Origin: Eledone cirrhosa
Taxonomy: Eukaryota
Assembly (NCBI GenBank): GCA_964016885.1
Contig: OZ024746.1
Location: 56,916,001-56,980,000, forward strand
Length of the DNA: 64,000 nucleotides
Reading direction: 5' to 3'
Part shown: one piece after another, positions 5,410-60,345 of the stretch
How positions within the stretch are numbered: the first letter of the stretch is position 1
Layout of the letters: each line of letters starts with the position of its first letter
Translations under genes and position numbers: made by a program
The notes under the pieces: generated by a model
Database searches by the model: none
The model's input: the letters and a program-made list of their open reading frames with translations, nothing else
What the model was told of the DNA's origin: nothing

Positions 5410-5971
5410 GGATAACAAGTTATCGTTTTAGGTAATCCAGTTAAAGGCTGTGCGTACTCTGTATTGCGGATAGTTTTAACGTACGGCGTTTTTTGACTCA
5501 ACAAGATATTTCCATATTTAGGTAGCGAGTTCGCGAAAATTCCGATACAGTTTATTCTTGGAGTAATAGTAGTGTTTTCTCTAACGTCATCACTACTTTA
5601 CACATTTACTTACTCACCACTCTAACTTCAACTACCGCCACCACCACTACTATTATCAGCAATCGTATTCTGTACTTATCTTTGACATCTTTATCATCTT
5701 CATTCCAACATCTTTATTATTATCTTTTATTATCTTTTATTATTGATGTTATTATTTTGATTCTCCGATGTATCTATAAATGCTAATGCCATGTGTTAAA
5801 CCCTCCAGTATTCCGATGAATTGATCAGAGACACACACTGTATTTAATGTCGAGTGACGCAACTTCGAATGATTAGCGGCCTTTAGACTTACCTGATCAA
5901 TGAAACAATTTTTAATACTATAATTAAAACGCTTTTTGTACAGCCGACCATGTTATTTATCCCCCTTTAAC

Positions 5972-8483: not shown

Positions 8484-9411
8484 CACGATCTATACGTGGT
8501 TATTTTACGTCTTGATGTGGGAGCTAAGTATATGTTTTGTTTATTCCTTTACTTATTTGCATAGGTAAGTATATATTACCCGTATGTTTTGTGAAGGTAT
8601 GTATACCTTCTCGTACGTATATTTGACTGTTATGGCGTATAATTTTTACATATTCTGGCATTTAGGGTTTGGCTATGTGTATACGGGAGTTTTGCGTCTG
8701 CGTGAGTATGCAGGTTCGTACGTATGGTGGGTGTGTGTAGATGTGTACTTCTTGTTTTAGTTGACTTACGTCTCCGAACATTCGTGTATTTATTTGTAGG
8801 TATGAGTGAGCGCTTGTTATATACGTATTTATTTACTTATATACGTTTACATAATTATTTATTTATTTGTACACAAGCATACACACACACACATATTTAT
8901 ATGTGCGTTATTTTGTATACCTATGGTAAGGTTTTGCGTATGCTTGTGTATGTACGTATCTGTTTGCGTGTATGTATTTATTTGTTTCTATTACTTCTGT
9001 ATTGTATTTATTTACTTTGTTCTTAACCCTGTAGCGGAGATTCATTTGGTCTCCTAGTTAGAATTTTAGTCTACAACTTCTGATATACCATTTACGTGGT
9101 TTTGTCTTTGCGTGCTATTGTTCTCCACGCTCCACATATGACTTATTATCTTAGTTTTTTCGTTCAATGCCAGAGAACGTCTCTATGCACCACCTAAGAG
9201 AACATTAGTCTACGACCTCTTTTATACCATAAACGTGGTTCTGTCTTTGCGCGTAATTGTTTTTCACCGCTCCTATTAATGACGTATTATTCGTTTTTTC
9301 CCGTTATTTGCCAGCGAACGTTTGCCCGAACCAAAGTATCGTCTTCCTGTCTTCCTCCGGTTGCAACGTTTTTTGAAATATCCAGTTCTGCGTTTACAGA
9401 TTGACTTTGTT

Positions 9412-12671: not shown

Positions 12672-13164
12672 AAGTTAACACCGAGTGAAATAATGATCTA
12701 AATAAATATGGTGCAACGTTGGTGCCAGATCATATCAGTATTATATAATGGTTTAACTCAGAACAGAAATCAACTTTTAACCCTATGAAAGCAAACGTTA
12801 TGATAATTATGTAATGTTGGCCATTCACTTTACTCCTAGGATTCACAGAGAGACAAACACAACCACACATATAACCCCCCCCCCCCCACCACACACACAC
12901 ACACATGCATGTTTTTCTGTGGGATTTCTTTTAATTTATCACCCGGTTTTGGGGGGATCCGAGATAGGCGTATGAAACCTTTTCAATTTTGTTTATTATG
13001 GATCGGCAATGGTGATATTAACCAATATTTGTACTAACTTTGCATTTTGTCCTAGGTAGATGTGGCTATTTACACTTACAGCGTGTGCATAAGGTCTCGC
13101 TTAGTGAATAGTGGCATATTCTGAGGTTTCGTGTATGTGTTCACTTAATATAACTTACATTTCA

Positions 13165-16100
13165 ATATGATTAGAAATCGATCGTTGTGACGAGATAATA
13201 TTAACAAGGGATATTTGTGAGTAGAGATAATATTAGCAAAGGAGAGCTGTGACTAGATAATATTAGAAATGGAGAATTGTGACTAGATAATATTAGAAAC
13301 GGAAAGTTGTGACTAGATAATATTAGAAATGGAGAATTGTGACTAGATAATATTAGAAACGGAGAGTTGTGACTAGATAATATTAGAAACGGAGAGTTGT
13401 GACTAGATAATATTAAAAAGGGAGAGTTGTGACTAGATAATATTAGAAACGGTGAGTTGTGACTAGATAATATTAAAAAGGGAGAGTTGTGACTAGATAA
13501 TATTAGAAACGGAGTGTTGTGACTAGATAATATTAGAAACGGAGAGTCGTGACTAGAGATAATATTAGAAAGGGAGAGTTGTGACTAGATAATATTAGAA
13601 ACGGAGAGTTGTGACTAGAGATAATATTAGAAAGGGAGAGTTGTGACTAGATAATATTAGAAACGGAGAGTTGTGACTAGAGATAATATTAGAAAAGGAG
13701 AGTTGTGACTAGATAATATTAGAAACGGTGAGTTGTGACTAGATAATATTAGAAACGGAGAGTTGTGACTAGATAATATTAAAAAGGGAGAGTTGTGACT
13801 AGATAATATTAGAAACGGAAAGTTGTGACTAGATAATATTAGAAATGGAGAATTGTGACTAGATAATATTAGAAACGGAGAGTTGTGACCAGATAATATT
13901 AGAAACGGAGAGTTGTGACAAGATAATATTAAAAAGGTAGAGTTGTGACTAGATAATATTAGAAACGGAGAGTTGTGACTAGATAATATTAAAAAGGGAG
14001 AGTTGTGACTAGATAATATTAGAAACGGAGAGTTGTGACTAGATAATATTAGAAACGGAGAGTTATGACTAGAGATAATATTAGAAAGGGAGAGTTGTGA
14101 CTAGATAATATTAGAAACGGAGAGTTGTGACTAGAGATAATATTAGAAAGGGAGAGTTGTGACTAGAGATAATATTAGAAAGGGAGAGTTGTGACTAGAT
14201 AATATTAGAAACGGAGAGTTGTGACTAGATAATATTAGAAACGGAGAGTTGTGACTAGATAATATTAAAAGGGGAGTGTTGTGACTAGATAATATTAGAA
14301 ACGGAGAGTTGTGACTAGATAATATAAGAAATGGAGAGTTGTGACTAGATAATATTAGAAATGGAGAGTTGTGACTAGACATACTATTAGAAAGGGAGAG
14401 TTGTGACTAGATAATATTAGAAACGGAGAGTTGTGACTCGATAATATTAGCAATGGAGAGTTGTAACTGGAGATAAAATTAGCAATGGAGAGTTGTGAAT
14501 AGATAATATTAAAAAGGGAGAGTTGTGACTAGATAATATTAGAAACGGAGAGTTGTGACTAGATAATATTAAAAAGGGAGAGTTGTGACTAGAGATAATA
14601 TTAGAAAGGGAGAGTTGTGACTAGATAATATTAGCAATGGAGATTTGTGACTAGATAATATTAGAAACGGAGAGTTGTGACTAGATAATATTAGAAGTGG
14701 AGATTTGTGACTAGAGATAATATTAGCAATGGAGAGTTGTGAATAGATAATATTAAAAAGGGAGAGTTGTAACTAGAGATAATATTAGAAAGGGAGAGTT
14801 GTGACTAGATAATATTAGAAGTGGAGATTTGTGACTAGAGATAATATTAGCAATGGAGAGTTGTGAATAGATAATATTAAAAAGGGAGAGTTGTAACTAG
14901 ATATAATATTAGAAAGGGAGAGTTGTGACTAGATAATATTAGAAAGGGAGAGTTGTGACTAGAGATAATATTAGCAATGGAGATTTGTGACTACATAATA
15001 TTACAAATGGAGAGATGTGACTAGATAATATAAGAACTGGAGAATTTTGACTAGTGATAATATTAGAAAGGGAGAGTTGTGACTAGAGATAATATTAGCA
15101 ATGGAGAGTTGTGAATAGATAATATTAAAAAGGGAGAGTTGTAACTAGAGATAATATTAGAAAGGGAGAGTTGTGACTAGATAATATTAGAAGTGGAGAT
15201 TTGTGACTAGAGATAATATTAGCAATGGAGAGTTGTGAATAGATAATATTAAAAAGGGAGAGTTGTAACTAGATATAATATTAGAAAGGGAGAGTTGTGA
15301 CTAGATAATATTAGAAAGGGAGAGTTGTGACTAGAGATAATATTAGCAATGGAGATTTGTGACTACATAATATTACAAATGGAGAGATGTGACTAGATAA
15401 TATAAGAACTGGAGAATTTTGACTAGTGATAATATTAGAAAGGGAGAGTTGTGACTAGAGATAATATTAGCAATGGAGAGTTGTGAATAGATAATATTAA
15501 AAAGGGAGAGTTGTAACTAGAGATAATATTAGAAAGGGAGAGTTGTGACTAGATAATATTAGAAGTGGAGATTTGTGACTAGAGATAATATTAGCAATGG
15601 AGAGTTGTGAATAGATAATATTAAAAAGGGAGAGTTGTAACTAGAGATAATATTAGAAAGGGAGAGTTGTGACTAGATAATATTAGAAATGGAGAGTTGT
15701 GACTAGATAATATTAGAAATGGAGAGTTGTGACTAGAGATAATATTAGAAATGGAGAGTTGTGAAAAGAGATAATATTAGAAATGGAAAGTTGTGACTAG
15801 ATAATAATAACAATGAATAATTGTGACTAGAGGTAATATTAGAAATGGAGAGTTGTGACTAGAGATAACATTAGAAATGCAGAGTTGTGACTAGAGATAA
15901 TATTAGCAATGGAGATTTGTGACTACATAATATTACAAATGGAGAGATGTGACTAGATAATATAAGAACTTGAGAATTGTGACTAGAGATAATATTAGAA
16001 AGGGAGAGTTGTGACTAGATAATATTAGAAAGGGAGAGTTGTGACTAGATAATATTAACAATGGAGAATTGTGACTAGATAATATTAGAAATGGAGAGTT

Positions 16101-19100
16101 GTGAATAGATAATATTAGAAATGGATAGTTGTGCCTAGAGGTTATATTAGGAATGGAGAGTTGTGACTAGATATAATATTAGAAAGGGAGAGTTGTGACT
16201 AAATAATATTAGAAATGGCGAGTTGTGCCTAGAGGTTATATTAGGAATGGAGCGTTGTGACGAGATATAATATTAGAAAGGGAGAGTTGTGACTAAATAA
16301 TATTAGCAATGGAGTGTTGTGACTAGAGATACTATTAGCAAAGGAGATTTGTGACTAAATAATATTAGAAATGGAGAGTTGTGCCTAGAGGTTATATTAG
16401 GAATGGAGAGTTGTGACTAGATATAAAATTAGAAAGGGAGAGTTGTGACTAGAGATAATATTAACAATGGAGAGTTGTGACTAGAGATAATATTAGAAAT
16501 GGAAAGTTGTGACTAGAGATAATATTAGAAAGGGAGAGTTGTGACTAGAGATAATATTAACAATGGAGAGTTGTGACTAGATAATATAAGAACTTGAGAA
16601 TTGTGACTAGAGATAATATTAGAAAGGGAGAGTTGTGACTAGATAATATTAGAAAGGGAGAGTTGTGACTAGATAATATTAACAATGGAGAATTGTGACT
16701 AGATAATATTAGAAATGGAGAGTTGTGAATAGATAATATTAGAAATGGATAGTTATGACAAGAGATAATATTAGCAATGGAGAGTTATGACTAGATAATA
16801 TTAGCAATGGAGAGTTATGACAAGAGATAATATTAGCAATGGAGAGTTATGACTAGATAATATTAGAAATGGGGAGTTGTGACTAGATAATATTCACAAT
16901 ATATCGTTGTGACTAGAATATAGTAACAATGGAGTATTGTGTGCTAGATAATATTAGAAATGGAGAGTTGTGACAAGTTAAAATTAGAAAGGGAGAGTTG
17001 TGACTAGTGATAATATTAACGATGGATAGTTGTGAATAGATAATATTAGCAATGGAGAGATGTGACTATATAATATTAGAAATGGAGAGTTGTGACTATA
17101 TAATATTAGAAATGGAGAGTTGTGACTAGAGATAATATTAGAAATGGAGAGTTGTGACTATATAATATTAGAAATGGAGAGTTGTGACTAGAGGTACTAT
17201 TAGCAAAGGAGAGTTGTGACTAGATAATATTAGGTATGGAGAGTTGTGACTAGATACTATTAGACATGGAGAATTGTGACTAGATAATATTAGAAAGGGA
17301 AAGTTCTAACTAGAGATAATATTAGAAATGGAGAGTTGTAACTAGATAATATAGACAATGGAGAATTGTGACTAGTGATAATATTAGAAATAGAGCGTTG
17401 TGACTAGATAATATTAGAAATGGGGAGTTGTGACTGTATAATATTAACAATGTAGAGTTGTGACTAGAGATAATATTAGAAAGGGAGAGCTGTGACTAGA
17501 TAATATTAACAAGGGATATTTGTGACTAGAGATAATATTAGCAAAAGAGAGTTGTGACAAGATAATACTAGAAAGGGCGAGTTGTGATTAGAGATAATAT
17601 TAGCAATGGAGAGATGTGACTAGATAATAATAGAAATGGAGAGTTGTGACTAGAAATAATATTAGAAAGGGAGAGCTGTGACTAGAGATAATATTAGCAA
17701 AGGAGAGTTGTGACTAAATAATATTAGAAATGGAGAGTTGTGACTAGATATAATATTAGAAAGGGAGAGTTGTGATTAGAGATAATATTAGAAACGGAGA
17801 GTTGTGACTAGAGATAATATTAGCAAACGAGAGTTGTGACTAGATAATATTAGATAGGGAGAGTTGTGACTAGATAATATTAGAAAGGTAGTGTTGTGAC
17901 TAGAAATAATATTAACAATGGTGAGTTGTGTCTAGATAATATTAACAATAGAGAGTTGTGACTAAATAATATTAACAATGGAGAGTTGTGACTAGATAAT
18001 ATTAGAAATGGAGAGTTGTGACTAGAGATAATATTAGAAATGGAGAGTTGTGACAAGAGATTATATTAGAAATGGAGAGTTGTGACTAGATAATATTGAC
18101 AATGGAGAATTGTGATTAGAGACAATATTAGAAATGGAGAGTTTTGACTAGAGATAATATTAGAAATGGAGAGTCGTGACAAGAGATAATATTAGAAATG
18201 GAGAGTTGTGACAAGAGATTATATTAGAAATGGAGAGTTGTGACTAGATAATATTAGAAATGCAGAGTTGTCACTAGAGATAATATTAGCAATGGAGATT
18301 TCTGACTACATAATATTAGAAATGGAGAGTTGTGACTGGACATAATACTAGAAATGGAGAGTTGTGACTAGAGATAATATTAGAAACGGAGAGTTGTGAC
18401 TAGATAATATTAGATGGGGAGAGTTGTGACTAGATAATATTAGAAAGGTAGAGTTGTGACTAGAAATAATATTAATAATGGAAAGTTGTGTAGTGGCTAG
18501 AGAAAATATTAGAAATGGAGAGTTGTGACTAGATAATATTGACAATGGAGAGATGTGACTAGATAATATTAGAAAGGGAGAGTTGTGACTGGAAAATATT
18601 AACAATGGATAATTGTGACTAGATAATATTGGAAAGTGAGAGTTGTGACAAGAGATAACATTAGAAAGGGAGAGTTGTGACTAGAGATAACATTAGAAAT
18701 GGAGAGTTGTGACTAGATAATATTAGCAATGGAGAGTTGTGACTAGATAATATTAGAAACGGAGAGTTGTGACTAGATAATATTAGAAATGGAGAATTGT
18801 GACTAGATAATATTAGAAATGGAGAATGGTAACTAGATAATATTAGATAGGGAGAGTTGTGACTAGATACTATTAGAAAGGTAGAGTTGTGACTAGAAAT
18901 AATATTAACAATGGAGAGTTGTGACTAGATAATATTAGCAAGGGAGAGTTGTGACTAGAGATAATATTAGAAAGGGAGAGTTGTGGCAAGAGATTATATT
19001 AGAAATGGAGAGTTGTGACTAGATAATATTGACAATGGAGAGTTGTGACTAGAGATAATATTATAAATGCAGAGTTGTGATTAGATAATATTAGAAATGG

Positions 19101-21036
19101 TGAGTTGTGACTAGAGATAATATTAGAAATTGAGAATTGTGAAAATAGATTATATTAGAAATGGAGAGTTGTGACTAGATAATATTGACAATGGAGAGTT
19201 GTGACTAGAGATAATATTAGAAATTGAGAATTGTGACAATAGATTATATTAGAAATGGAGAGTTGTGACTAGATAATATTAACAATGGAGAGTTGTCACT
19301 AGAGATAATATTAACAATGGAGAGTTGTGTCTAGATAATATTAGAAATGGAGAATTGTGACTAGATAATATTAGAAATGGAGAGTTGTGACTAGATAATA
19401 TTAGAAAGGGTGAGTTGTGACAAGAGATACTGTTAGCAAAGGAGAGTTGTGACTAGATAATATTAGAAATGGACAATTGTGACTAGAGATAATAATAACA
19501 ATGGAGAGTTGTGATGAGCTTATATTAACAATTGAGAGTTGTGTTGTGGCTAGAGAAAATATTAGAAATGGAGTGTTGTGACTAGATAATATTAGAAATG
19601 GAGAGTCGTGACTAGGTAATGTTAGAAATGGAGAGTTGTGACTAGATAATATTAACAACGGAGAGTTGTGACTAGATAATATTAGAAATGGAGAGTTGTG
19701 ACTAGATAATATTATCAATGGAGAGTTGTGACTAGATAATATTAGAAACGGAGAGTTGTGGCTAGATAATATTAACAATGGAGAGTTGTGACTAGATAAT
19801 ATTAGAAAGGGAGAGTTGTGACTAGATAATATTAGCAATGGAGAGTTTTGACTAGATAATATTAGAAACGGAGAGTTGTGACTAGATAATATAAGAAATG
19901 GAGAGTTGTGACAATATAATATTAACAATGGGGAGTTGTGACTTGATAATATTAGAAATGGAGAGTTGTGACTAGATAATATTAACAATGGTGAGTTGTG
20001 ACTAAATAATATTAGAAATGGAGAGTCGTGACTAGAGTTAATATTAGAAATGGAGTGTTGTGACGAGAGATAATATTAGCAAATGAGAGTTGCGACTAGA
20101 TAATATTAGAAATGGAGAGTTGTGACTAGAGATAATATTAGAAACGGAGAGTTGTAACTAGATAATATTAGCAGTTGGAGAGTTGTGACTAGATAATATT
20201 AAAATGGAGAGTTGTGACTAGAGAAAATATTAGAAATGGAGAGTCGTGACTAGAGATAATATTAGAAATGGAGAGTTGTGACTAGATAATATTAACAATA
20301 GAGAGTTGTGATTAGAGAAAATATTAGATATGGAGAATTGTGACTAGATCGTATTAGAAATAGAGAGTTGTGACTAGACGATATTAACAATGGAGAGTTA
20401 TGACTAGATAATATTAGAAAGGGAGAGTTGTAACTAGAGATAATATTAGAAATGGAGAGTTGTGTCTAGATAATATTAGAAATGGAGAGTTGCGATTAGA
20501 TAATATTAACAATGGAGAGTTGTGACTCGAGAAAATCTTAGAAGTGGAGAGTAGTGACTAGAGATAATATTACAAATGGAGAGTTGTGACTAGATAATAT
20601 TAGAAATGGAGATTTGTGACTAGATAATATTAACAATGGTGAGTTGTGACTAGAGTTAATATTAGAAATGGAGTGTTGTGACTCGAGATAATGTTAGCAA
20701 TTGAGAGTTGTGACTAGATAATATTGGAAAGGGAGAGTTGTGACTAGAGATAATATTAGAAATGGAGAGATGTGACTATATAATATTAGAAATGGAGAGA
20801 TGTGACTAAATAATATTAGAAAAGGAGAGTTGTGACTATAGATAATATTAACAATGGAGAGTTGTGACTAGAGATTATATTAACAATGGAGAGTTGTGAC
20901 TAAATAATATTAAAAATGGAGAGTTGTGACTAGAGATACTATTAACAATGGAGAGTTGTAACTAGAAATTATATTAACAATGGAGAGTTGTGACTAGAGA
21001 TAATATTAACAATGGACAGTTGTAACTAGAGAAAAT
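13165..21036. repeat. Satellite array of 30/32-bp monomers (consensus GAGAGTTGTGACTAGA[GA]TAATATTAGAAATG), ~7.9 kb
   Basis: Head-to-tail tandem monomers (about 255 by length) with no spacers. Confidence 0.98.
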
Positions 21037-21232
21037 AGACATCAATGTTTTACATACTATGTCGGTGGTCATAAGTATGACAATGATAGGTGCAATGGTA
21101 TGTTAGGCATATGTTTCATAGGACTGCTACGTATACAATGGGATTGAACTGCAGATGTAGTGGAAGAGAGTAGTGGTTCATCACTAAATGTACTGCTACA
21201 TGTGGTAATTGTATTAGAAGTATAATATAATT

Positions 21233-25937: not shown

Positions 25938-27610
25938 GGTGCAGGTGAAAGAACAACGTGAGGACGGATACCTCCAAACAAAGCTTATATAGGATTAACC
26001 GCTTGTGATTTCAAGATACGGTTATACCAACACAGACATACTTTCCGAAACCCGGCCCGGCGTCACACCACTACTCTTTCGGGCCACATCTGGGACCTCA
26101 AAGATAACAATATACCCTATAATCTCACTTGGAGCTTAGTGTCCAGAGCCAACTGTTACACGGGAGGACGCGCTCCGTGTAACTTATGCTCGGAAGAAAC
26201 ATTACAAATACTGTATTCGACGGACCATCTCCTAAACAAGAAAGACGAACTGGTAACTGCATGCAAACACATATTGCGTAGGACTTACATCGCCCTCAAA
26301 CACCATAATGAGCCGGGGAGGGGGTAGACACGGGCTGAAACACCCAACTTGCCGACTTTGTAATGGGTAACCCCTGCTTACAAAGGTAGACGTAACTTTT
26401 TTTTATGAATTTTCTTATATATTTTTTATCGTTTCCTCTGTTTCCTTCTTCCCCCACCCTTCCTAGTCCTTCCACCCCAGATCTACTTTTTTGTCGTCGT
26501 ACTTTTCACCTTCTCGCCCACCCCGAGGCAGCCCTTCGGTCCTCTGTAGCGTCAGTACCCCACCCACATTATTCTATGATAGAATTGGCCGATTCCGCTT
26601 TTTATAGCAGATGTGCTAGACCCCAGATACTTGCTTTCTTCTCTGATTGCTGCTCCATTTCCGTGATTTCTAGATTTCTTAGTGTTATTTCTGCTTAAGT
26701 TTCTCGTATATCAGTATTTTTTTTTAGGGGGAGGATTCTGAATTAAATTTTCGTATTAGTTTTTCATATATATCGTACGCGTATTGATGTAGTTTGTATT
26801 AGAATTTATGTATTGTAGCAGTACTCATATATATCGTATTAGTATTCATGTTTCGGGATACTGAATTAATATTTCGTATTAGTTTCGGGACTCTGAATTA
26901 TTATTTCGCATTAGTTTTTCTTTTTGTAGTATTTTGGCCCCCTACTTGTTGACCTATCATTGTAAGATCGATTTGGCCGACTACTACTCTGAAATTCTTT
27001 CACTACAATCTCGGATTTAGTATTCCGTCCCACCTATTAAACTTTTTTATAGCTTAGCAGTACCAGTGAGAGATTTGATGATTGTGGTAGGGCAATAGTA
27101 ACCAGAAATTGTGTTTTTTTTTATATTTTTTATATTTTCAATATTTTTCTATATATTTACTCCATATAGATTTACTTATTGTTTCGACTTCCTTCCCCCT
27201 CCTTTTCTCTAGTATACTTTTTTCAACCTCCTATCCTTTGAATCTGTTGTATTTGTCACATTCAACACTCGACTGGGTTTCCTGGACTCCCTCTCCCTCT
27301 TTCTTCTACTGGCAAGTTCAGCTACCCCTTCCTTCCACAAAATGCCATGATAGAATCATGTGTCTCAACAGTAAACTTTTGACCAATCCTTGTGACAATC
27401 ACTTTTACCATATGTGGAATTACCCCCTGAGAAGTTCGGCTATTCATTTAACAGGATAAATATGTTCATTTAGTCCAGAATTAGCCGTCGGAACGGCTTG
27501 AGCTCAGCCGTCGGGGTCCTACTCGTTTCCTATTACCCACTCTACTACACTAAGTATTGAGTACGTTGGTGCTCTATTGTCCATCTGGTTCCTTACCACA
27601 TTTCCTTCGT

Positions 27611-37740: not shown

Positions 37741-39011
37741 ATCTGTCTACAAGTGTAAGGTCGAGACACGCACGTCCCGTAGCGCCTACATAGCGTTAAC
37801 CGCCAATAGATTCAAGCAACGTCTTTACAATCACACCCATTCTTTTCTTAACCCTTTAAGAAGGAATATAACGTCACCTTCAGCTTATATCTGGAGTCTA
37901 AAAGACAACCACACCCAATATAGGTTACACTGGGGGATCCTAGCTAAAAGGTAGATCGTGTAACGGAAATAAAAGACCATGTGATCTTTGCGCAGCTGAA
38001 GCCATGGAGTTACTCTACGCCGATGACCACATCTTTAAAAAGAAATCTGAGGCAAATTCGACTTGTAAACACAAATTCCAGAAAACTTTCCTGTATTACA
38101 GCCCCACATGTATAGTACAAAACACGGATAATTTACGTCTTGATGCGGTAGCTAAGTATATTTTATGTTTATACCATTACGTATTTGTATACGTAAGTTT
38201 ATCTTAACCATATGTTTTGTGAAGATACGTATATTTTCCCGTTCGTATATATGCTTGTATTTGTTATAGGTGTATATATTATATTATATATGCTGGTTAT
38301 GTGTATATGGGTATTTTGTGTGTGTGCGTGCATGCGTGCATGCGTGTGAGCACGTATGTAAGGTGTGTATATGTGTACATTGTGTTTGGTGGACGTATAT
38401 TCGGTGAACATATGTGATTTTGCCTGTAGGTATGTGTGTGCATGCGCTATATATGTATTTATGTGTGTTTATTTATATTCGTTTATACATTTTTTTATGT
38501 GTATTTGGTGTATACGTTCGTATGTGTCGAGCGGGCTTTTGTATGTCTGCGCGTGTTTATGCATACGTGCTTCTTTATTCATGCATGGCGGGTGTTTGCG
38601 AGTGTTCACGAGTTGTATCTATATAGGTGCGTGTAAGTATATATTTAATTATTATTTCTTTTAATAACATCTGTCATTTTAGTTCTACTTATTTATTTAC
38701 ATTATTCTTAACCCCGAAGCCGAGAATCATTCGGTTTCTTAAATAGAATATTTGTCTACGACTTCATTTATACAATAACCGTGGTTTATCTTTGCTTGTA
38801 ATTGTTCTCCTCGGTTAACATAACGAAGTATTACCTTCATTTTTTCCGTTTATTGCCAGGGAACGTCTTCACGAACCAAAGTATCGTCTTCCTGTCTTAC
38901 TACGGTTGCAACGTTTTTCGAAATATTTACTCCACAGATCAACTTTTTTAGTTTCAGAAGATCCCGTTAAGGGTGAAAGCAACGATTATTTGCTTAAACT
39001 TTAATCTGTTA

Positions 39012-39048: not shown

Positions 39049-39092
39049 TATTTTCCGTTGTGTTGTAATATAAATATTATGATAGAAGCCGT

Positions 39093-41273
39093 ATGAACTC
39101 AACATTAGAAAGTGGTGTAAACAACAAATTCGGTTTTAGGACTTGTAAAAACCCACCCACCAACCCACTATTAGATACATTTGAGCAGGACCTTATGAAC
39201 TTAATCCTTAAAATTAAATTCAAAGGACGCAACACCAACAGCAAATTACAGAAAGATATAAAAAAACTACTGGACGACCTTAAAAACACCAAAGCAATTG
39301 TAGTAAAAGCGGACAAAACATCAAACCTGTACACTATGGATTGCACTACATACAACAACTTCATTCGAAAAGAATTACATAAAAAATATAGAAAAACGAG
39401 TGAAGTAACCCTTAAGCACATCAATGATGAGGCATGCGAAATAGTGAAAAATCTCGGAATCGAAGATAGGACAGGACCACTCTTACCGGCGGTACCCACC
39501 TTCAATCTTAAGGACCACAAGGTAAACTTTGATAATGACCCTAAAATTAGATTAATCTGCCCCTCTAAATCAGATATAGGTAAAATAAGCAAATATATCT
39601 TAGATAGAATCATCCCCCAAATTAAGGCTAAGGTTAACATTAAACTCTGGGGGAAGACCCAAGAAGCAATAAGATGGTTTAATAGCATTAGCAATAAGAA
39701 TAAATCTAAGTTTATCCAGTTTGATATCGATGAATATTACTCATCGATATCACTTGAAACTTTGAATAGAGCCATTAAGTTTGCTAAGGATAACTCTGAC
39801 CTTACAAACGATGAAATTAAGATTATATTAGAAGCTAGGAAAACTATAGTCAACTTTGAGAACAGTTATTGGGTACGTAAAGATAGACCCTCTAACTTTG
39901 ACATAACAATGGGATCTAACGATTCGGCGGAAATAACCGATATTGTGGGGTTATTTATCGCCTTTAGACTCCAGGAAAAATTCAGCAATCTCCACAGCGG
40001 AATATACCGCGACGATGTTCTCCTCCTAGCTAAAAGCCTTAATAACCAAAAACTAGAAAAACTACGCAAAGATATAAGAAAACTACTACTCGAAATAGGA
40101 CTAACTATAACATATGAATACAACCTTAAAGTAGTTAACTTCCTGGATGTCACACTCAATTTAAACTCTGGTTTGATTAAACCGTTTCATAAATTGAATG
40201 AAAATCTCAAATACGTAAATGTTGGGTCTAACCACCCCATCTCTATAATTAAATCTATCCCTAAAAATATTTCCCTTAGAATCTCGGGTCTATCTTCCAA
40301 CATACAAGTATTTAAGGAACACGCCGAGTACTACGATAACGCCCTTAGTAAAGCAGGCTACCTCAACAAAATAGAGTACATAGATGGGAACAATCAAAAC
40401 ACCCAAAATAAATCCCACATAGGTAGATATAATAACACAACACCAAACCACACTTACTACCATAGTATGCACACCAGTAAACCAACAAACAAAACTAATA
40501 GAAAGCGATGCAAAGAGTACTTATGGTATAACCCCGAATACAATAGCTCCATTAGTACAAATTTACCAGTACTCTTCTTTAAAATAATTAAAAGACATTT
40601 TCCCACATCACACAAATACCACAAAATCCTAAACCCTACCACTATAAGACTGTCATACTCTACAGCGTTAAACCTTGAACAACACATAAAAAAGATCAAT
40701 ACTAGAAGGTTAAACGAAAACACTAAGAACTTAAGTACAAAGAACACAAAAAAAACAGTAGACAATACACTACAGAACATAAATAAACCACACCTAAGTT
40801 CGTCCGCAATACTACTCCAGAGAAAACCCAACGTACACAACTGTAACTGCACCTATCCTGACAACTGCCCCCTCGGCAATAACTGCCTGGAAAAAAATAT
40901 TATTTATAAGTGTACCATTAAATCCGGAGGCAACGAGTGGTATTACGTGGGATCAACGGCAACATCGTTTAAATCTCGATTGTATAGGCATTCTTACTCA
41001 ATAAAGCACCAGAGCCAAAGAAATGTAACAACTTTAGCAGAAAAAGCTTGGACGCTAAGGGATAGCGACCAAAAGTTTACCCTAAAATGGGAAAAATTAG
41101 CTAAAACCCAAAGCTTCTCCAGGAGCCAAAATTTCTGCAAATTGTGTAATCTTGAGATTTATTACATAATCACACACAAGAAGAAACTGCTGAATAACAG
41201 AATTGAACGAACATTATTCTGCCGTCACAGAACTAAAACCCTTTTTTCCCACTACAAGCCGAATATTACATAA
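39093..41273 (+). CDS. PLE reverse transcriptase-GIY-YIG endonuclease polyprotein (726 aa; probably N-terminally truncated)
   Basis: KADKTSNLY, LKDHK, FIQFDIDEYYSSI, MGSNDSAE, GIYRDD, NFLDVTL, SNHP, WYNPEY, CNC..CPL..CL, IIY..YVGST..R..H, CKLC.LE, LNN and CRH. Confidence 0.95.
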   Translation: MNSTLESGVNNKFGFRTCKNPPTNPLLDTFEQDLMNLILKIKFKGRNTNSKLQKDIKKLLDDLKNTKAIVVKADKTSNLYTMDCTTYNNFIRKELHKKYRKTSEVTLKHINDEACEIVKNLGIEDRTGPLLPAVPTFNLKDHKVNFDNDPKIRLICPSKSDIGKISKYILDRIIPQIKAKVNIKLWGKTQEAIRWFNSISNKNKSKFIQFDIDEYYSSISLETLNRAIKFAKDNSDLTNDEIKIILEARKTIVNFENSYWVRKDRPSNFDITMGSNDSAEITDIVGLFIAFRLQEKFSNLHSGIYRDDVLLLAKSLNNQKLEKLRKDIRKLLLEIGLTITYEYNLKVVNFLDVTLNLNSGLIKPFHKLNENLKYVNVGSNHPISIIKSIPKNISLRISGLSSNIQVFKEHAEYYDNALSKAGYLNKIEYIDGNNQNTQNKSHIGRYNNTTPNHTYYHSMHTSKPTNKTNRKRCKEYLWYNPEYNSSISTNLPVLFFKIIKRHFPTSHKYHKILNPTTIRLSYSTALNLEQHIKKINTRRLNENTKNLSTKNTKKTVDNTLQNINKPHLSSSAILLQRKPNVHNCNCTYPDNCPLGNNCLEKNIIYKCTIKSGGNEWYYVGSTATSFKSRLYRHSYSIKHQSQRNVTTLAEKAWTLRDSDQKFTLKWEKLAKTQSFSRSQNFCKLCNLEIYYIITHKKKLLNNRIERTLFCRHRTKTLFSHYKPNIT

Positions 41274-42227: not shown

Positions 42228-42344
42228 TTATTCTGATGAAATGACAGTAAATAATAACATTGAAATATTGAATGTCTGCATAACTAAAAGTTTGTAGATA
42301 GCTGTTTTAGGTTATGTAACTGTTATAGAAACACGTGTCAATAA
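42228..42344 (+). ncRNA. Type I hammerhead ribozyme, canonical core, extended stem II
   Basis: TTATT-CTGATGA-A-ATGACAGT-(70 nt)-ACTGTTAT-A-GAAA-CACGTG-TC-AATAA. Confidence 0.85.
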
Positions 42345-42430: not shown

Positions 42431-42436
<6 letters not shown>

Positions 42437-44406
42437 TCAGGTTATCAATAATGTAGTGATAATATATCGTTACGTTAGAGATGAACAGCGTACGTGCAGG
42501 TTTGCTCAACGAGTATAAATTATATTCCGGAGAAATGTAGAAAGGATGAATATAAAATGAAAGTGCTTTTGTTAAAAAAGGAATTTATTAGGTATTGACA
42601 TATGTTTCTGTAACAGACCGAATACCTATGTATCGCTGCTTGCGTAATCATATAATGTTAGCAAGTATTCGATAGCAAATGTATAATCAGTTGTCACTTC
42701 TTCAGAGATTTTGGATAAACTGGATAAAATCAGAAAAATTGAAGTATTTATATTAGTAAAAGAGGAAGGAAGAGAGGGGATAGAATATGACAGATGGTAA
42801 AATAATTTACTGCTAAACAAGTATATAATGGGTTTTTAATGAGAATACCATGAGTAAATCTAAATAAGAATTTTGGGGGTGCCGATTTTAATCTCTACTT
42901 GACCAACTGGACAGTGGACAGGGCTGGTCATTTGGTGCAGTAGTATTAATCATAAAGTGTCAAATGGGGAAGGGGGAGATTTCGATTGCTACTAAATAAC
43001 ATCAATGCTAGTGGTCAGCTGGTATTTGCTCTAGGGAATTGAATAAAAAAATCAGAAATCTCATTTTATCTATAGCAGTTTGTATTAAAAGGTAAATAAT
43101 AGAAGAGTTGATAGAATTAAGACTAATAAAGAATGTTCATATCCATTTTGACAATCAAACGGGGATAGAGACAGGCGTTCAATCCTGGTAGTATTTATAA
43201 TATGAAAATGTAGATTTTAAGCGATGGTTACAGTATAACGATCGCTCTATTCTGTTATTTAATAAAATGTTTTTGGATTTCATAATACAAAATAATTCTA
43301 CATTACATAATCTACAAAATTCCTGTCCATTGGAATATGGGGGGGCATCGCTATTATATCCCATTTTAGGTGAAATTGTTGGTTATTTTCACGCAGCTGC
43401 CAAGCCTTGTCTGCGAGTGTTGTTACATAACGCTGGTTTTCATGTTTTATCGAATAACGATGTCTATAAAGGCGTGATTTAAAGGAGGTGGCTGTAGATC
43501 CCACATAGTACCACTTCTGTCTATCCGATTCGATAGTACATTTGTATACGATGTTGCGTTCAAGACACTGGTTGTTCAACGGACACATTCCTGGTTGGAC
43601 ACAGTTGCAATTACAATTTTGCGTTGTTGTATTGCCATGGATGGGTTGATGAGGTTGCTTATGTAGAACAGGATGTTGTTTGTTGTTTTGTGATGTTATA
43701 GCTAATGTTTTACGTGTATTGTTATGTGTTGGAAGGCGTTTATACAACCGTTTTGCGTTAAGCATTTTTATATGTTGTTCAATATTAGGGGCGGTTGAAT
43801 ATGAAAGTCGGATGGTGTTAGGGTTTAAGATTTTATTATATTTATGTGATGTTGGAAAGTGTTTTCTAACTAATCGAAAGAATTTTGAGGGTAGATTGGT
43901 TTTAATAGATTTGTTATAGACCGGGTTGTACCAGATATACTCCTTACATCGCCTTCTGTTTGGTGGTGTGCGACTATTATTGTGTCTATTGCGGTAGTGT
44001 ATGTATGGTGGTGATTCTGTGCTATTTCTACTCCTATGTGATTTATTTTGGGTGTTTTGGTGATCATTGACTATATACTCTATATTATCTAGGTGACCGG
44101 CTTTCCTAAGTGCATCATCATAATACTCGGCATGTTCTTTGAAGGTTTGTTGGTTGGACGATAGGCGGGAGATTCTAAGAGAAACATTTCCAGGGATGGA
44201 TTTAATTATAGAGAGTGGATGGTTAGAACTCGTATTTACATATTTAAGGTTCTCATTTAGTTTATGGAACGGTTTAATCGAATACTTGCTAACATTATAT
44301 GATTACGCAAGCAGCGATACATAGGTATTCGGTCTGTTACAGAAACATATGTCAATACCTAATAAATTCCTTTTTTAACAAAAGCACTTTCATTTTATAT
44401 TCATCC

Positions 44407-45168: not shown

Positions 45169-45846
45169 GGATTAACAAATAATAGTTAAATGCAGTCCAC
45201 TTAGGTGAAGTTCAGTTATGGTATTCCAGGTAGTGGATGATATTAACGCTTGGCTTGGTTTGACTCAACAAGGCGTTTTCATAGTGATGCTGCGGGTATG
45301 CTGTAAACACTTGTAGTATAATAAATCAGGAAAGAAGGATTACATGGTTTGCTATACAAAAAAGTTTTTAATCACATAGCTTACATTTGTTTCACTGAAC
45401 TGATCTGTCTAGAGATCGCTATCCGCCTAATTTTGCGTCACTCGATCGCCAATACAGAATTATAACCAGTCAGATCTTCGGAACATGCGAGAATGAAGAA
45501 AATACACAGGCAAGAAAAGAAAAGAAAATATGGAGTAGTTATGTCATTCAATTAGAACAATAACAACAACAATTATTACAACAATGCTATCAATAAACTA
45601 TTTAAGGAGACCCGGACATTACTTAGGTGGGGGGTATATAATGTATCTAATGTTACGGCGTGAAAATCAGCTGTCATAAGGCAAAAAGTATCGTAGTGTG
45701 TATCAATTTTAAATCATAAAGATGAGCTAGTTTTTACAGTCCTTCTCTTCATCTTCAACAGTATACATGAGTGGGACCACTGTCAAAGCTCAATAGTTGT
45801 AGAGTTAATACAGAGGTTAACGAATTAATATACGCATATATCTACG

Positions 45847-45878
<32 letters not shown>

Positions 45879-46570
45879 AATATATATACACATATATGTG
45901 TACATAGACACATACATACAAATCAACATACACTCGTACAAAAATATACATACATGCAAAGAGAAAAGCGTGCTAATTGTAGTTATGGCAAAAAGAAGGT
46001 AAAGTAACATTGTAGTAGTGAAATGAGAAAAACTAGGATCTAGGATCAAATGATTGCAGCAGCTGAGAAGGAGTAAGATTGTTGGTAGATGAGGTATTTA
46101 CAGACAATTGTGTGGTATAGACTTGTGAAGGAAATAGTATATTTAATGAATATATTTCTGTGGGTAGTAGGTATCCTAATTTAAAGCTATGTTATGTTGG
46201 TTCGATTCACGGAGGTTTGAATCTTATGAATTTAGTGGCTATTCTATGTCTGCAGAAGATAGATATTTCTAACTTATTATTAAGTAGCCTTTTAACATTT
46301 CTAAGGATATACAATAGCTCAAGGTCACACAGCCCGCAATAGGATATCCCTGTACTATAGGTACCAACAATCTTACTCCTTCTCAGCTGCTGCAATCATT
46401 TGATCCTAGATCCTAGTTTTTCTCATTTCACTACTGCAATGTTACTTTACCTTCTTTTTTCCATAACTACAATTAGCACGCTTTTCTCTTTGCATGTTTG
46501 TATATTTTTGTACGAGTGTATATTGATGTGTATGTATGTGTCTATGTACACATATATGTGTATATATATT

Positions 46571-46626
<56 letters not shown>

Positions 46627-47152
46627 CGTAGATATATGCGTATATTAATTCGTTAACCTCTGTATTAACTCTACAACTATTGAGCTTTGACAGTGGTCCC
46701 ACTCATGTATACTGTTGAAGATGAAGAGAAGGACTGTAAAAACTAGCTTATCTTTATAATTTAAAATTGATACACACTACGATACTTTTTGCCTTATGAC
46801 AGCTGATTTTCACGCCGTAACATTAGATACATTATATACCCCCCACCTAAGTAATGTCAGGGTCTCCTTAAATAGTTTATTGATAGCATTGTTGTAATAA
46901 TTGTTGTTGTTATTGTTCTAATTGAATGCCATAACTACTCCATGTTTTCTTTTCTTTTCTTGCCTGTGTATTTTCTTCATTATCGCATGCTCCGAAGATC
47001 TGACTGGTTATAATTCTGTATTGGCGATCGAGTGACGCAAAATTAGGCGGATAGCGATCTCTAGACAGACCAGTTCAGTGAAACAAATGTAAGCTATGTG
47101 ATTAAAAACTTTTTTGTATAGCAAACCATGTAAACCTTCTTTCCTGATTTAT
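45169..47152 (-). mobile_element. PLE family B: EN C-terminus plus ~770-bp inverted pLTR arms
   Basis: YCGLCDLELLYI..LLNNKLE...CRH at 46207-46360 (-). Arms 45321-46087 and 46362-47152 are near-perfect reverse complements. Confidence 0.92.
46989..47094 (+). ncRNA. Hammerhead ribozyme, extended stem II (family B)
   Basis: GCT-CCGAAGA-T-CTGACTGGT...ACCAGTTCAG-T-GAAA-CAAATG-TA-AGC. The mirror copy is at ~45379-45484 (-). Confidence 0.8.
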
Positions 47153-48081: not shown

Positions 48082-48167
48082 TATCTGATGACCTTTCGAT
48101 TACAGAGTCAGCTTGGATCTATAATCGGTCTTGCCTCGAGCTGATCGATAGTGAAACATATGTAATA
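48082..48167 (+). ncRNA. Hammerhead ribozyme in a solo pLTR with inverted tail (47953-48076)
   Basis: TAT-CTGATGA-C-CTTTCGAT...ATCGATAG-T-GAAA-CATATG-TA-ATA. 48030-48073 is an imperfect reverse complement of 48168-48212. Confidence 0.75.
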
Positions 48168-52420: not shown

Positions 52421-52540
52421 GTTCCGATGAGCCACTCTGTTTTTTAAATATGTTAATTATTTTCAACTGAACCAGATCAATTATGATATATAGTCATCTG
52501 ATCCAGAAATATTATATGGAGTAGCGAAACAATTGTAAAC
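52421..52540 (+). ncRNA. Hammerhead ribozyme, extended stem II
   Basis: GTT-CCGATGA-GCCACTC-(81 nt)-GAGTAGC-GAAA-CAATTG-TA-AAC. Confidence 0.75.
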
Positions 52541-52581: not shown

Positions 52582-52737
52582 AATGCTTTGACGCATAGAG
52601 TTACGCTCCTTGCCATTCTGAGTTCAAATCCCGCGAGGTTAACTTTGCCTTTCATCCTTACGGGGTCGATAAAATAAAGTACCACTAATGCACTGGGTAA
52701 TTGCTGGCCTTGTGCCAAAAGTAGAAACAATTATTAT
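52582..52737 (+). mobile_element. SINE inserted in an (ATT)n run of the PLE pLTR
   Basis: GAGTTCAAATCC..GCCTTTCATCCTTACGGGGTCGATAAAATAAAG. It is absent from the inverted arm at 50058-50072. Confidence 0.85.
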
Positions 52738-54427: not shown

Positions 54428-55765
54428 ATAAAGAATTAATATCTAGTAACATATATATACATACAGATGCATATCGATGCTAGCAAATATATAGGTTTTG
54501 TCTTAGTAACTTTGTGGTTCAATGCATGGGGTTGCAGTACAATAATATGAGAGACGTAAAATAAGAAAATTATAAAATTAACTTACTTACTAAAATTTCA
54601 CTCCCAACTAATTAGTTTCTGAAATGGAATAATTATATTTTCCGAAGAAAATATAGAGAAGCATTTCGTCGTCAGGGAAGTCTATTCTCAGCTAAGTATC
54701 CAGGCAAAGCGTGGACTCTGGAAACTTATACAAAAATAATTCAGTGGATAGAAAATAGCAAAGCGTGGACTGAATTCCTAGCCTACTGAAATCACTGCCT
54801 ACTGCGTCGGTGGCAAATTCAAAAAGAATCAATCACGTGACATCGAGCTCAATCAGTGGAAAGTGGGTTGTTAAGAAGACAGCGGCCTGCCTGCTACCAT
54901 AGCAGCAGTCTTGGCCAATATTGCTCGACAAATAATTTGGAGATAATTATAAAGAATTAATATCTAGTAACATATATATACATACAGATGCATATCAATG
55001 CTAGCAAATATATAGGTTTTGTCTTAGTAACTTTGTGGTTCAATGCATGGGGTTCCAGAGTCCATGCTTTGCCTGGATACTTAGCTGAGAATAGACTTCC
55101 CTGACGACGAAATGCTTCTCTATATTTTCTTCGGAAAGTATATTTATTCCATTTCAGAATCTAATTAGTTGGGAGTGAAATTTTAGTAAGTAAGTTAATT
55201 TTATAATTTTCTTATTTTACGTCTCTCATATTATTGTTCTGCAACCCCATGCATTGAACCACAAAGTTACTAAGACAAAACCTATATATTTGCTAGCATT
55301 GATATGCATCTGTATGTATATATATGTTACTAGATATTAATTCTTTATAATTATCTCCAAATTATTTGTCGAGCAATATTGGCCAAGACTGCTGCTATGG
55401 TAGCAGGCAGGCAGCTGTCTTCTTAACTTCTTAACAAACCACTTTCCACTGATTGACCTCGATGTCACATGATTGATTCTTTTTGAATTTGCCACCGACG
55501 CAGTAGGCAGTGATTTTCTCAATGGCTAGGAATTCAGTCCACGCTTTGCTATTTTCTATCCACTGAATTATTTTTGTATAGGTTTCCAGAGTCCACGCTT
55601 TGCCTGGATACTGAGCTGAGAATAGACGTCCATGACGAAGAAATGCTTCTCTATATTTTCTTCGGAAAATATATTTATTCCATTTCAGGAACTAATTAGT
55701 TGAGAGTGAAATTTTAGTAAGTAAGTTAATTTTATAATTTTCTTATTTCACCTCTCTCATATATT
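54428..55765. mobile_element. Non-coding HHR-containing repeat (family D, ~520-530-bp unit): inverted and tandem units; retrozyme-like
   Basis: AAAGAATTAATATCTAGTAAC occurs at 54430 and 54951. The inversion point is ~55055. CAGAGTCCA.GCTTTGCCTGGATAC occurs at ~55056 and ~55587. (TA)n flanks. Confidence 0.8.
54601..54680 (-). ncRNA. Hammerhead ribozyme (family D) with cUUCGg-capped stem II extension
   Basis: CTTCC-CTGACGA-C-GAAATG..TATATTTTC-TTCG-GAAAATATA..CATTTC-A-GAAA-CTAATTAG-TT-GGGAG. Mutated copies lie at 55096-55175 and ~55626-55705 (+). Confidence 0.8.
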
Positions 55766-58997: not shown

Positions 58998-60345
58998 AAA
59001 CGGAAAAAATGAAACGAATTTTCATTTCTCACTCTTAGTACAGCTATTACTTAAATATAAGTATGTATACGTACATACATATATGTGTACAGACGTACAA
59101 TGGTGTGTATATATATACATACAAGCACACATATATATATGTATGTATGGATTTACCGAACATTTATAATAATGCTCGGTTTGTTTGTAAACAAACATCC
59201 CGAATTAAGCCGTACAGGCTTTAGCAACCATCGTTGCCATTTTGTTCAACATTGACAAAGGAACGATGTACTAGTTCCAAGATTATTAACTATCGTCAGC
59301 ACTGTATACCTTCCTGCCAGATGATTGAACGTCTGAAAGTATATACTTTCCTTATGCATATTAACTGCTGAGCCGCCTAATTTGCATATCGAGTGAGTTA
59401 ATCGGCCGTCGCACTGAAAAGGATAAATGGAAAATATGAAACGAAACTGCATGTCTCACTCTTAGTAGTATGTATATATATACATACATGCACACATGTA
59501 TATATATATATGTACGTATGAATTTACCTAACATTTATTAAAATGCTCGGTTTGTTTGTAAACAAACATCCCGAATTAAGTCGTACAGTGTTTATAAACC
59601 ATCGTTACCCTTTTGTTCAACACTGACAAAGAAACGATGTACGAGTTTCAAGCTTATTAGCTATCGTCAGCACCGTATGCCTTCCTGCCAGATGATTGAA
59701 CGTATGGAAGTATATACTTTCCTGATGCATATTAACGGCTGAGCAGCCTAATTTGCATATTGAGTGGGTTAATCGGCCGGGCGCACCGAAAACGATAAAT
59801 GTTCGGTAAATCCATACGTACATATATATATGGGTACATGTATGTATATATATAGATACTACTATACGTCTGTATACATACATGTATGTACGTATACATA
59901 CTTATATTTAAGTAACAGCCGTACTAAAAGTGAGAAATGAAATTTCGTTTCATGTTTTTCATTTATCGTTTTCGGTGCGCCCGGCCGATTAACTCACTCG
60001 ATATGCAAATTAGCCTGCTCAGCCGTTAATATGCATAAGGAAAGTATATACTTTCAGACGTTCAATCATCTGACAGGAAGCTATACGGTGCTGATGATAC
60101 ATAATAAGCTTGAAACTAGTACATCGCTCTTTGTCAGGGTTGAACAAATGGGCAACGATGGTTGGTAAACAGTGTACGGCGTAATTCGGGATGTTGGTTT
60201 AAAAAACAAACCGAGCATTATAATAAATATCCGGTAAATCCATACTTACATATATATATGTGTGCATGTATGTATATATTTACATACTACTGTATGTCTG
60301 TATACATATATGTATGTACGTATACATACTTATATTTATATATAG
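58998..60345. mobile_element. Family C retrozyme-like cluster: ~2 minus-strand units then ~1.3 plus-strand units, 3 HHRs
   Basis: HHRs at 59264-59304 (-, GAAA mutated), 59635-59675 (-) and 60086-60126 (+). The inversion lies near 59795. Homologous to 902-1695. Confidence 0.8.

Follow-up and report, generated by a model that had tools for sequence, protein, structure and literature searches.

A predicted rod in stem II of hammerhead motifs from Hydra-clade Penelope-like elements, possibly a docking site for the element's own protein

Our analysis of a 64,000-nt stretch of Eledone cirrhosa DNA (contig OZ024746.1; "the window") identified a conserved module inside stem II of hammerhead ribozyme (HHR) motifs of Penelope-like elements (PLEs). 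The module is predicted to fold as a rod and may, in a reading that we put forward tentatively, be a docking site for the element's own reverse transcriptase (RT)-endonuclease (EN) protein. The motif is very probably constrained as RNA structure, and the sequence comparison indicates that the hammerheads of one Hydra PLE subclade have inherited a genuine structured extension of their stem II, predicted to be the rod. Both the ribozyme class and the retroelement clade are already known. A search of the mainly open-access literature on long stem II hammerheads in retrotransposons, octopus/cephalopods and Penelope gave no description of the module, so the extension appears to be new to the sources covered. 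The features are listed in Table 1.

Table 1. Positions of the hammerhead motifs, the module and associated element parts in the window.
Feature	Position	Strand	Details
Conserved module in stem II	47016-47066	+	Predicted rod, internal loop, apical part
Whole stem II domain	47000-47078	+	Outer helix, 7-nt 5' linker (47009-47015), module; MFE -27.4 kcal/mol, z -3.6
Minimal type-I hammerhead motif	46985-47099	+	Stems I, II and III, core, triplet
Diverged-lineage HHR	5807-5919	+	6-bp stem I, core CCGATGA at 5813, motif 5838-5888
Second copy of HHR and module	45374-45488	-	Core starts at 45481, motif 45457-45407; in 791-nt inverted duplicate
Sister family HHR	42233-42339	+	88-nt stem II domain, same predicted rod; 960 nt after ORF 39069-41273
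Sister family HHR	42597-42705	-	90-nt stem II domain, same predicted rod, AAU/AG loop; after ORF fragment 44329-43197
Further long stem II domain	56718-56601	-	99 nt
Further long stem II domain	52424-52537	+	95 nt
Further long stem II domain	48085-48164	+	61 nt
Further long stem II domain	55101-55170	+	49 nt
Hydra-clade endonuclease C-terminal remnant	46213-46371	-	E 2e-10; 732 nt upstream of the 45481 HHR, same strand
Conserved downstream block	47099-47131	+	ATTAAA 47101-47106, U-rich run, ACCATG 47125-47130
Distal 150-nt tail beyond proximal end	45170-45320	-	Homologous to 5410-5570
Distal tail of the 5820 element	5410-5570	-	Joined head-to-head to HHR-bearing part

Results

Three copies of the motif represent two lineages

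The initial annotation had described a motif common to the stem II inserts of diverged HHRs. An exact search for CTGTATT-N4-6-TCGAGTGACGCAA-N9-13-TAGCG-NN-CTYTAGAC confirmed it, with three matches in the window (5838-5888 and 47016-47066 on the forward strand, 45457-45407 on the reverse strand) and none in 100 shuffles. The reverse-strand copy falls within a 791-nt inverted duplicate, 95% identical to 46362-47152 (45321-46087 versus 47152-46362), belongs to one insertion together with the 47016 copy and is therefore not independent, so that the three copies stand for two lineages. All of them lie inside stem II of minimal type-I HHR motifs at the 3' end of Hydra-clade PLEs, and the insert that has the motif as its core, roughly 60 nt long, is present in several related PLEs. 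The outer stem II sequences differ between the lineages and yet pair, as had also been claimed: nine of nine positions in the 5820 copy (ATTGATCAG, 5820-5828, with CTGATCAAT, 5893-5901) and nine pairs plus one bulged T in the 47000 copy (CTGACTGGT, 47000-47008, with ACCAGTTCAG, 47069-47078), with TGA/TCA in common at the base. The conserved block comprises 47016-47066, whereas the linker before it shows no conservation.

Between the two lineages, the insert alignment scores 13 against a shuffle mean of -16 (0/500), while the two 100-nt upstream flanks are at shuffle level (270/500 and 341/500). Identity amounts to 34/51 in the motif, 26/33 in the downstream block and 63% over 126 nt of the distal tail; the HHR region as a whole is 67-70% identical. 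The objection that the motif might be no more conserved than its surroundings thus fails for the upstream side but holds for the downstream side. Positions chosen as variable are identical in 12/45 cases, a figure for which the choice is circular. A perfect 13-nt run has a p of about 7e-5 at a background identity of 0.35 and of 0.12-0.26 at 0.63-0.68, so its significance hinges on the background assumed. A fair reading of these values is that the whole element end is under constraint, the module being one constrained part of it.

The hammerhead motifs that carry the module

The 47000 copy has a CUGANGA-type core (with U4C) and GAAA, three helices, an open stem I and an NUH triplet, as in type I HHRs. 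Stem I (46985-46991/47092-47099) has seven pairs and one bulge, stem II nine pairs with U-U at its base, and stem III three pairs within the near-palindromic ACAAATGT (47083-47090). The core CCGAAGA (46992-46998) is combined with GAAA at 47080-47083, and self-cleavage is predicted after A47091, at the GUA triplet 47089-47091. A long stem III ending at 47118, considered at first, was replaced by this minimal stem III ending at 47091. As a dimer, stem III has two A-A mismatches and a predicted energy of -0.7 kcal/mol, versus -7 to -10 in the sister families. An alignment of the HHRs contains 24 pairs, of which 85% are formed (0/500 shuffles as high), with covariation in stems I and II.

The diverged copy at 5813 has a perfect stem I, with a sequence unlike that of the 47000 copy. 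Its cleavage triplet reads TTT, versus GTH in the others, and C15.2-G16.2 is broken; because the G of the triplet is lost, this ribozyme is likely dead. The cores of the motif-bearing copies, CCGA(A/T)GA, represent U4C, a natural variant described as weaker in vitro (PMC3088659, excerpt). U4C cores (CCGA) are found at 565, 5813, 45481, 46992 and 52424, i.e. in 5/17 tabulated cores from at least three unrelated-looking families.

No Rfam family matched the window at gathering score, and three HHR regions gave only noise at E 1-10, with no hammerhead match up to E 10; since the short HHRs of the window were likewise missed at gathering score, this null result is weak. A captured known RNA as the source of the module was considered and is unsupported, given that no Rfam match rose above noise.

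The module is predicted to fold as a rod

The predicted rod pairs 47016-47030 with 47055-47068 around a bulged A47020 and is combined with an AGU/AG internal loop (47031-47033/47053-47054) and a lineage-specific apical part (47035-47051). The initial annotation had instead folded the module as a GAG/CTY stem and a CGC/GCG stem and had suggested selection as RNA structure. In this latter register, 6/6 pairs form in both lineages with no compensatory change. The rod register, from G47030-C47055 to G47018-C47066, retains 11/12 and 10/12 pairs in the two lineages and shows two compensatory changes and one wobble change. Selection as RNA structure is thus supported, though for the rod and not for the helix first proposed. 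In the 47000 copy, the rod is predicted at -12.7 versus -4.0 kcal/mol for the GAG/CTY register, with pair probabilities of 0.74-1.0 for the rod and 0.0 for the latter. In the decayed 5820 copy (z -0.8), the GAG/CTY register is preferred (-5.0 versus +0.3 kcal/mol; probabilities 0.2-0.5 versus 0.01).

Adding the sister-family HHRs at 42233 (+) and 42705 (-) gave an alignment of five rows, which, two rows being near-identical, correspond to four independent lineages. The rod comprises 14 pairs in this alignment, with 78% of 69 cells paired, versus 32-48% in slid registers used as a control. Double-sided changes occur in 6/14 of its pairs (3/500 shuffles), a value to be read with the caveats that kinship alone can beat shuffles among few related rows and that the register was derived from the same sequences. 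The GAG/CTY register shows a double-sided change in 1/6 pairs (106/500 shuffles) and is probably the wrong one. Two features are invariant across the five rows, namely the bulged A, after which come U-G/U-A pairs, and an ARU/AG loop with G-C as its closing pair; the invariant unpaired bases (A47020, A47031, T47033, A47053 and G47054) point to something beyond pairing, which alone does not explain them.

Predicted folding is more stable for the sense strand than for its reverse complement in the 47000 domain (-27.4/-21.3 kcal/mol), the 45450 domain (-25.1/-17.0), the PLE3 domain (-24.1/-8.3) and the PLE4 domain (-25.5/-18.2), as expected for G-U pairs in RNA, whereas in the 5820 copy the reverse complement folds slightly better. 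RNAalifold without guidance did not recover the rod: two 51-nt blocks gave the GAG/CTY register and seven rows the outer stem only. Nearby sequence yielded no conserved pseudoknot partner for the 13-mer AGTGACGCAA. Beyond the rows on which it was trained, a covariance model (R1) recovered in the window only a partial inverted copy (44250-44362, E 9e-4) and some short HHRs with weak scores, and in 18 foreign loci nothing below E 0.23. Outside the training set, the G-ARU/AG-C loop occurs in one of five long-domain families, which is not significant at a background of 0.3-5.5% each.

The module was compared by eye with known RNA motifs. A kink-turn has tandem GA pairs beside a 3-nt bulge, and loop E (bulged-G) consists of AGUA/GAA strands. 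AGUGA/GAUAG could form tandem GA pairs in the 47000 copy but not in the other lineages, and the shared ARU/AG loop resembles but does not equal AGUA/GAA. The SECIS elements of Naiad PLEs are likewise structured rods in a PLE 3' UTR, but their helix and loop geometry does not fit: a SECIS element has a RUGAN/NGAN quartet, then an 11-14-bp helix and apical AA, whereas GUGAC/GGAU closes just three pairs in the 47000 copy, none in the 5820 copy, and is absent in the sister families. The HHR regions searched gave no Rfam SECIS match. The ORF 39069-41270 contains no in-frame UGA target, and no stop interrupts what is left of the family B ORF (that of the motif-bearing elements), which is otherwise missing.

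The host elements are Hydra-clade PLEs

The window is AT-rich animal DNA (23-46% GC per 2 kb), full of (TA)n tracts and retroelement remains, in which a profile of 32 aligned proteins mapped 16 Hydra-clade fragments. A 734-aa ORF (39069-41273) has a DKT motif, a CxCx5C linker and CxxC and CxH motifs, with RT followed by a C-terminal EN, and these motifs define Hydra-clade PLEs (PMC8557442, excerpt); of these parts, family B has retained just the end of the EN, where CxxC and CxH are present. A Pfam search gave 0 families, and the relatives found in protein searches were mostly 28-45% identical (highest 51%, over a short match). HHRs near the 3' end, (TA)n insertion and inverted truncated copies are further Hydra-PLE hallmarks in the window, which also has a 13-nt word in common with the published Hydra-1_Obim consensus. 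Since the 45481 HHR follows the endonuclease end on the same strand, it lies in the 3' UTR in sense direction. The two families that share the rod are closest to family B in protein as well (23/50 identities for ORF 39069-41273 and 20/48), versus 13/37-15/50 for three other families and 6/14 for a short fragment, which suggests that the module was inherited.

Several other repeats were noted. In a single case, an inverted copy of the 42705 family, the copy starts (at 44277) within the rod, where the AAU/AG loop has its base. A further Hydra family has, at its 3' end (9025-9075, 38712-38760 and 2119-2165 on the reverse strand), CTGAAGC and a hairpin without GAAA, which could be a decayed or deviant ribozyme. 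A repeat near 52640 resembles a SINE, and 30/32-nt units with a strong GC skew make up an array of 8 kb at 13100-21100.

Element ends and the region past the cut

The 47000 copy ends at 47152, before a TA tract, and its ATTAAA resembles a poly(A) signal; an AATAAA/ATTAAA hexamer lies 0-9 nt past the predicted cut in 7/9 copies examined. The proximal element end is 57-61 nt past the cut in four copies, and the distal end 164 and 212 nt past it. The Hydra protein profile gave no match in the distal tail (best E 0.2), nor was the tail's similarity to the PLE4 tail significant (185/500 and 35/500 shuffles). Two preferred ends are seen at 45170-45320, 5410-5570 and 42433-42540 (all reverse strand), with an extra tail of about 105-150 nt here versus the 30-40 bp described for PLEs. 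The 5410-5970 element consists of the tail and the inverted HHR part with no overlap, an arrangement that we infer to be the product expected of twin priming. ACCATG, a good start-codon context, is conserved about 35 nt past the cut (47125-47130 and 5947-5952) with a stop at once or soon after; it could serve as start codon, as splice donor or within the RT start site.

Long stem II domains in the window and elsewhere

Among 17 HHR cores tabulated by hand within the window, not exhaustively, 12 have stem II domains of 49-99 nt (nine lineages) and five of 14-26 nt (three lineages). Of ten long domains, seven are predicted to be more stable than their shuffles (z -2.4 to -5.4), and three are not. 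A strict descriptor found four HHRs in the window with inserts of at least 40 nt and a stem I of at least 3 pairs, versus a mean of 0.03 in 100 block shuffles. Among the 15 short stem IIIs in the tabulation, nine are perfect palindromes and six are one substitution away; near-palindromic or palindromic short stem III is a signature of dimer-acting PLE HHRs (PMC4209133, excerpt). In 18 loci with Hydra ORFs from other animals, 29/31 descriptor matches have a stem II of 11-24 nt, and five loci are without a match. Matches with 109- and 53-nt stem II in these loci were set aside as spurious-looking, having 2-bp stems III without an A-C start. These loci come from bacterial assemblies (L001-L018; MAGs and a symbiont assembly) and likely represent animal-host contamination; three of them (L005, L011 and L012) contain clusters of 4-9 HHR matches.

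Three further observations concern individual domains. The 48085 copy has a G-AGU/AG-C loop and, downstream, TATGTGATTAAA in common with the 47000 copy. Two copies at 22741-22656 (-) and 27427-27512 (+) share an HHR-like core, CTGAGAA (G8 replaced, C3 kept). Both have a 56-nt stem II domain together with a stem III that is long and stable, which sets them apart from the other Hydra HHRs. A short repeated element (59365-59401, 1355-1390 on the reverse strand, 59960-60120) combines an HHR with a 14-nt stem II and, about 100 nt upstream, an octamer-like ATGCAAAT. Flanking the latter are TCGAGTGA and a sequence close to GCAAAATTAGGCGG; both words also belong to the 47000 module, where their arrangement differs, and the likeness is probably due to chance.

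Discussion

The hammerheads described here share with the canonical HHRs of the Hydra clade (Craig et al. 2021, PMC8557442, File S2) the type I topology, the location near the 3' end, a short palindromic stem III, an extra nucleotide on each side of stem II (gat ... tgaa), (TA)n insertion and inverted 5'-truncated copies. In all 26 rows of File S2, the core is CUGA and loop 2 has 3-10 nt, whereas the window elements have an 81-90-nt stem II domain with conserved internal loops and, in family B, a CCGA core; descriptor limits may have hidden such long forms from earlier searches. The minimal dimer-acting PLE HHRs (Cervera and de la Pena 2014, PMC4209133, excerpt) also have a palindromic helix III, an extra nucleotide between 9 and 10.1, a larger-than-usual helix II and high variability between families, but that helix II has 6-8 bp, compared with a predicted rod of at least 20 pairs with a sequence-conserved module here. 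Spike-moss PLE-X1 HHRs (PMC8557442, File S2) have an enlarged loop 2 of 29-34 nt, flagged as a non-canonical structure, in an unrelated clade, at half the length and with no conserved module described. The protein-assisted HHR of Poseidon PAc (Frangieh et al. 2024, PMC11167929, excerpt) similarly lies close upstream of two element ends (the tail signature); it differs in belonging to another clade, in an ORF that starts in stem II, in a minimal RNA of +20 to +172 and in a tail of 30-40 bp.

Poseidon is also the source of our functional proposal. Its hammerhead cleaved only when PLE protein was added. The template of reverse transcription was uncleaved RNA, on which synthesis began internally, 111-118 nt into the ORF, whereas the cut is at +26; the paired ends mark two such start sites (PMC11167929, excerpt). 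The elements of the window display the HHR context, strand, position after the ORF, palindromic stem III, poly(A)-like hexamer and two element ends. In our proposal, cleavage by the HHR would require a tandem transcript in which two repeats form a dimer, and a protein bound to the rod would determine the fate of the RNA, which would be either cut or left intact for copying from the start sites that follow closely downstream. By analogy with Poseidon, the rod would stand some 60-100 nt upstream of the start site. It would be placed in the helix where extra domains disturb the core least, with its conserved unpaired bases and family-specific tip exposed, and the apical part, including TGACGCAA, would let the protein of each family recognise its own RNA. 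The unpaired bases, the tip and the position fit a docking site for the element's protein, which we regard as the best, though tentative, explanation; a protein site, proposed in the initial annotation too, is thus plausible. Two points speak against it: the Poseidon RNA needed for activity, +20 to +172 of the ORF, is mostly downstream of the HHR (PMC11167929, excerpt), and a rod is no general requirement, given that loops of 3-10 nt suffice for the transposition of Hydra elements in other animals.

The conserved word might instead be a DNA promoter element of the pLTR, with pairing secondary. We take TGACGCAA to resemble a bZIP CRE/C-EBP composite site. The 13-mer is identical between the lineages while the opposite strand of the apical part is 2/11 identical, no conserved complementary partner for it was found nearby, and the pLTR of Penelope holds a start site and an internal promoter (PMC8557442, excerpt). 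A promoter site had also been suggested in the initial annotation, a claim weakened by the sister families, which keep the rod and lose TGACGCAA; furthermore, this word is found only in the three family B copies, a count reached in 9/100 shuffles, and the compensatory pairs and strand-biased folding point to RNA. We therefore consider a promoter role unlikely, although a dual DNA and RNA role of the word is conceivable.

Contacts between loop II and stem I raise the activity of natural HHRs, and U4C lowers it in vitro (PMC3088659, excerpt), so the rod could be a tertiary aid made of RNA alone, which by docking on stem I would restore activity, without protein, to a ribozyme weakened by U4C and a minimal helix III. 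Such a role seems rather unlikely, given that the conserved loop is more than 20 predicted pairs from the core, that the stem I sequence is not conserved (2/6 on each side), that no conserved pseudoknot partner was found for the 13-mer, and that the two traits also occur apart, rods together with normal CUGA cores and U4C together with a stem II of 20 nt (at 565).

The remaining readings are improbable. If cutting removes the poly(A) signal, the mRNA would have no tail and would end in the rod as its final structure, as the hexamer positions in 7/9 copies imply, and the rod could protect the ORF-bearing 5' cleavage product or promote its translation; HHRs support cap-independent translation in fungal viruses (PMC13725137, excerpt), but no Poseidon reads ended at the cut site (PMC11167929, excerpt), and the hexamer is missing from 2/9 copies. 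A two-state switch between the rod and the GAG/CTY register would explain the conservation of GACGC and agrees with the full pairing of that register in both lineages and their opposite preferences; against it, the register covaries at shuffle level and is 8.7 kcal/mol worse in the 47000 copy, and the preference of the 5820 copy may reflect decay, as T is present at both broken rod pairs and in the broken core at positions that are G in the 47000 copy. Finally, mere residual homology of two related families, in a stem II that tolerates long hairpins without function, would suit the 67-70% and 63% identities, the p of 0.12-0.26 for the 13-nt run at such a background and the differing long domains of other families, yet it is hard to reconcile with unalignable upstream flanks, 2/6 identity at paired stem I positions and a module kept with compensatory changes across families that are 42-46% identical in protein.

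Returning to protein docking, a more far-reaching version, which we consider doubtful, is that a Hydra subclade evolved a natural aptazyme: a family-specific protein-binding rod on stem II, through which the RT, possibly as a dimer bridging two repeats, would choose between self-cleavage and full-length copying. Hammerheads with long stem II would then be common, and invisible to descriptors, in this animal lineage.

Overall, 9 of the 12 tabulated HHR lineages in 64 kb have stem II domains of 49-99 nt without an Rfam report, and ribozyme counts in such genomes may therefore be too low. The finding bears on two questions: why PLEs keep hammerheads, and how a PLE reverse transcriptase, a telomerase relative, recognises its RNA, for which a single element is to our knowledge the only precedent. 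With its covariation and family-specific parts, a module joined to a ribozyme provides a concrete RNA to test for both, and, if the docking proposal is true, the module would be a natural protein-controlled ribozyme.
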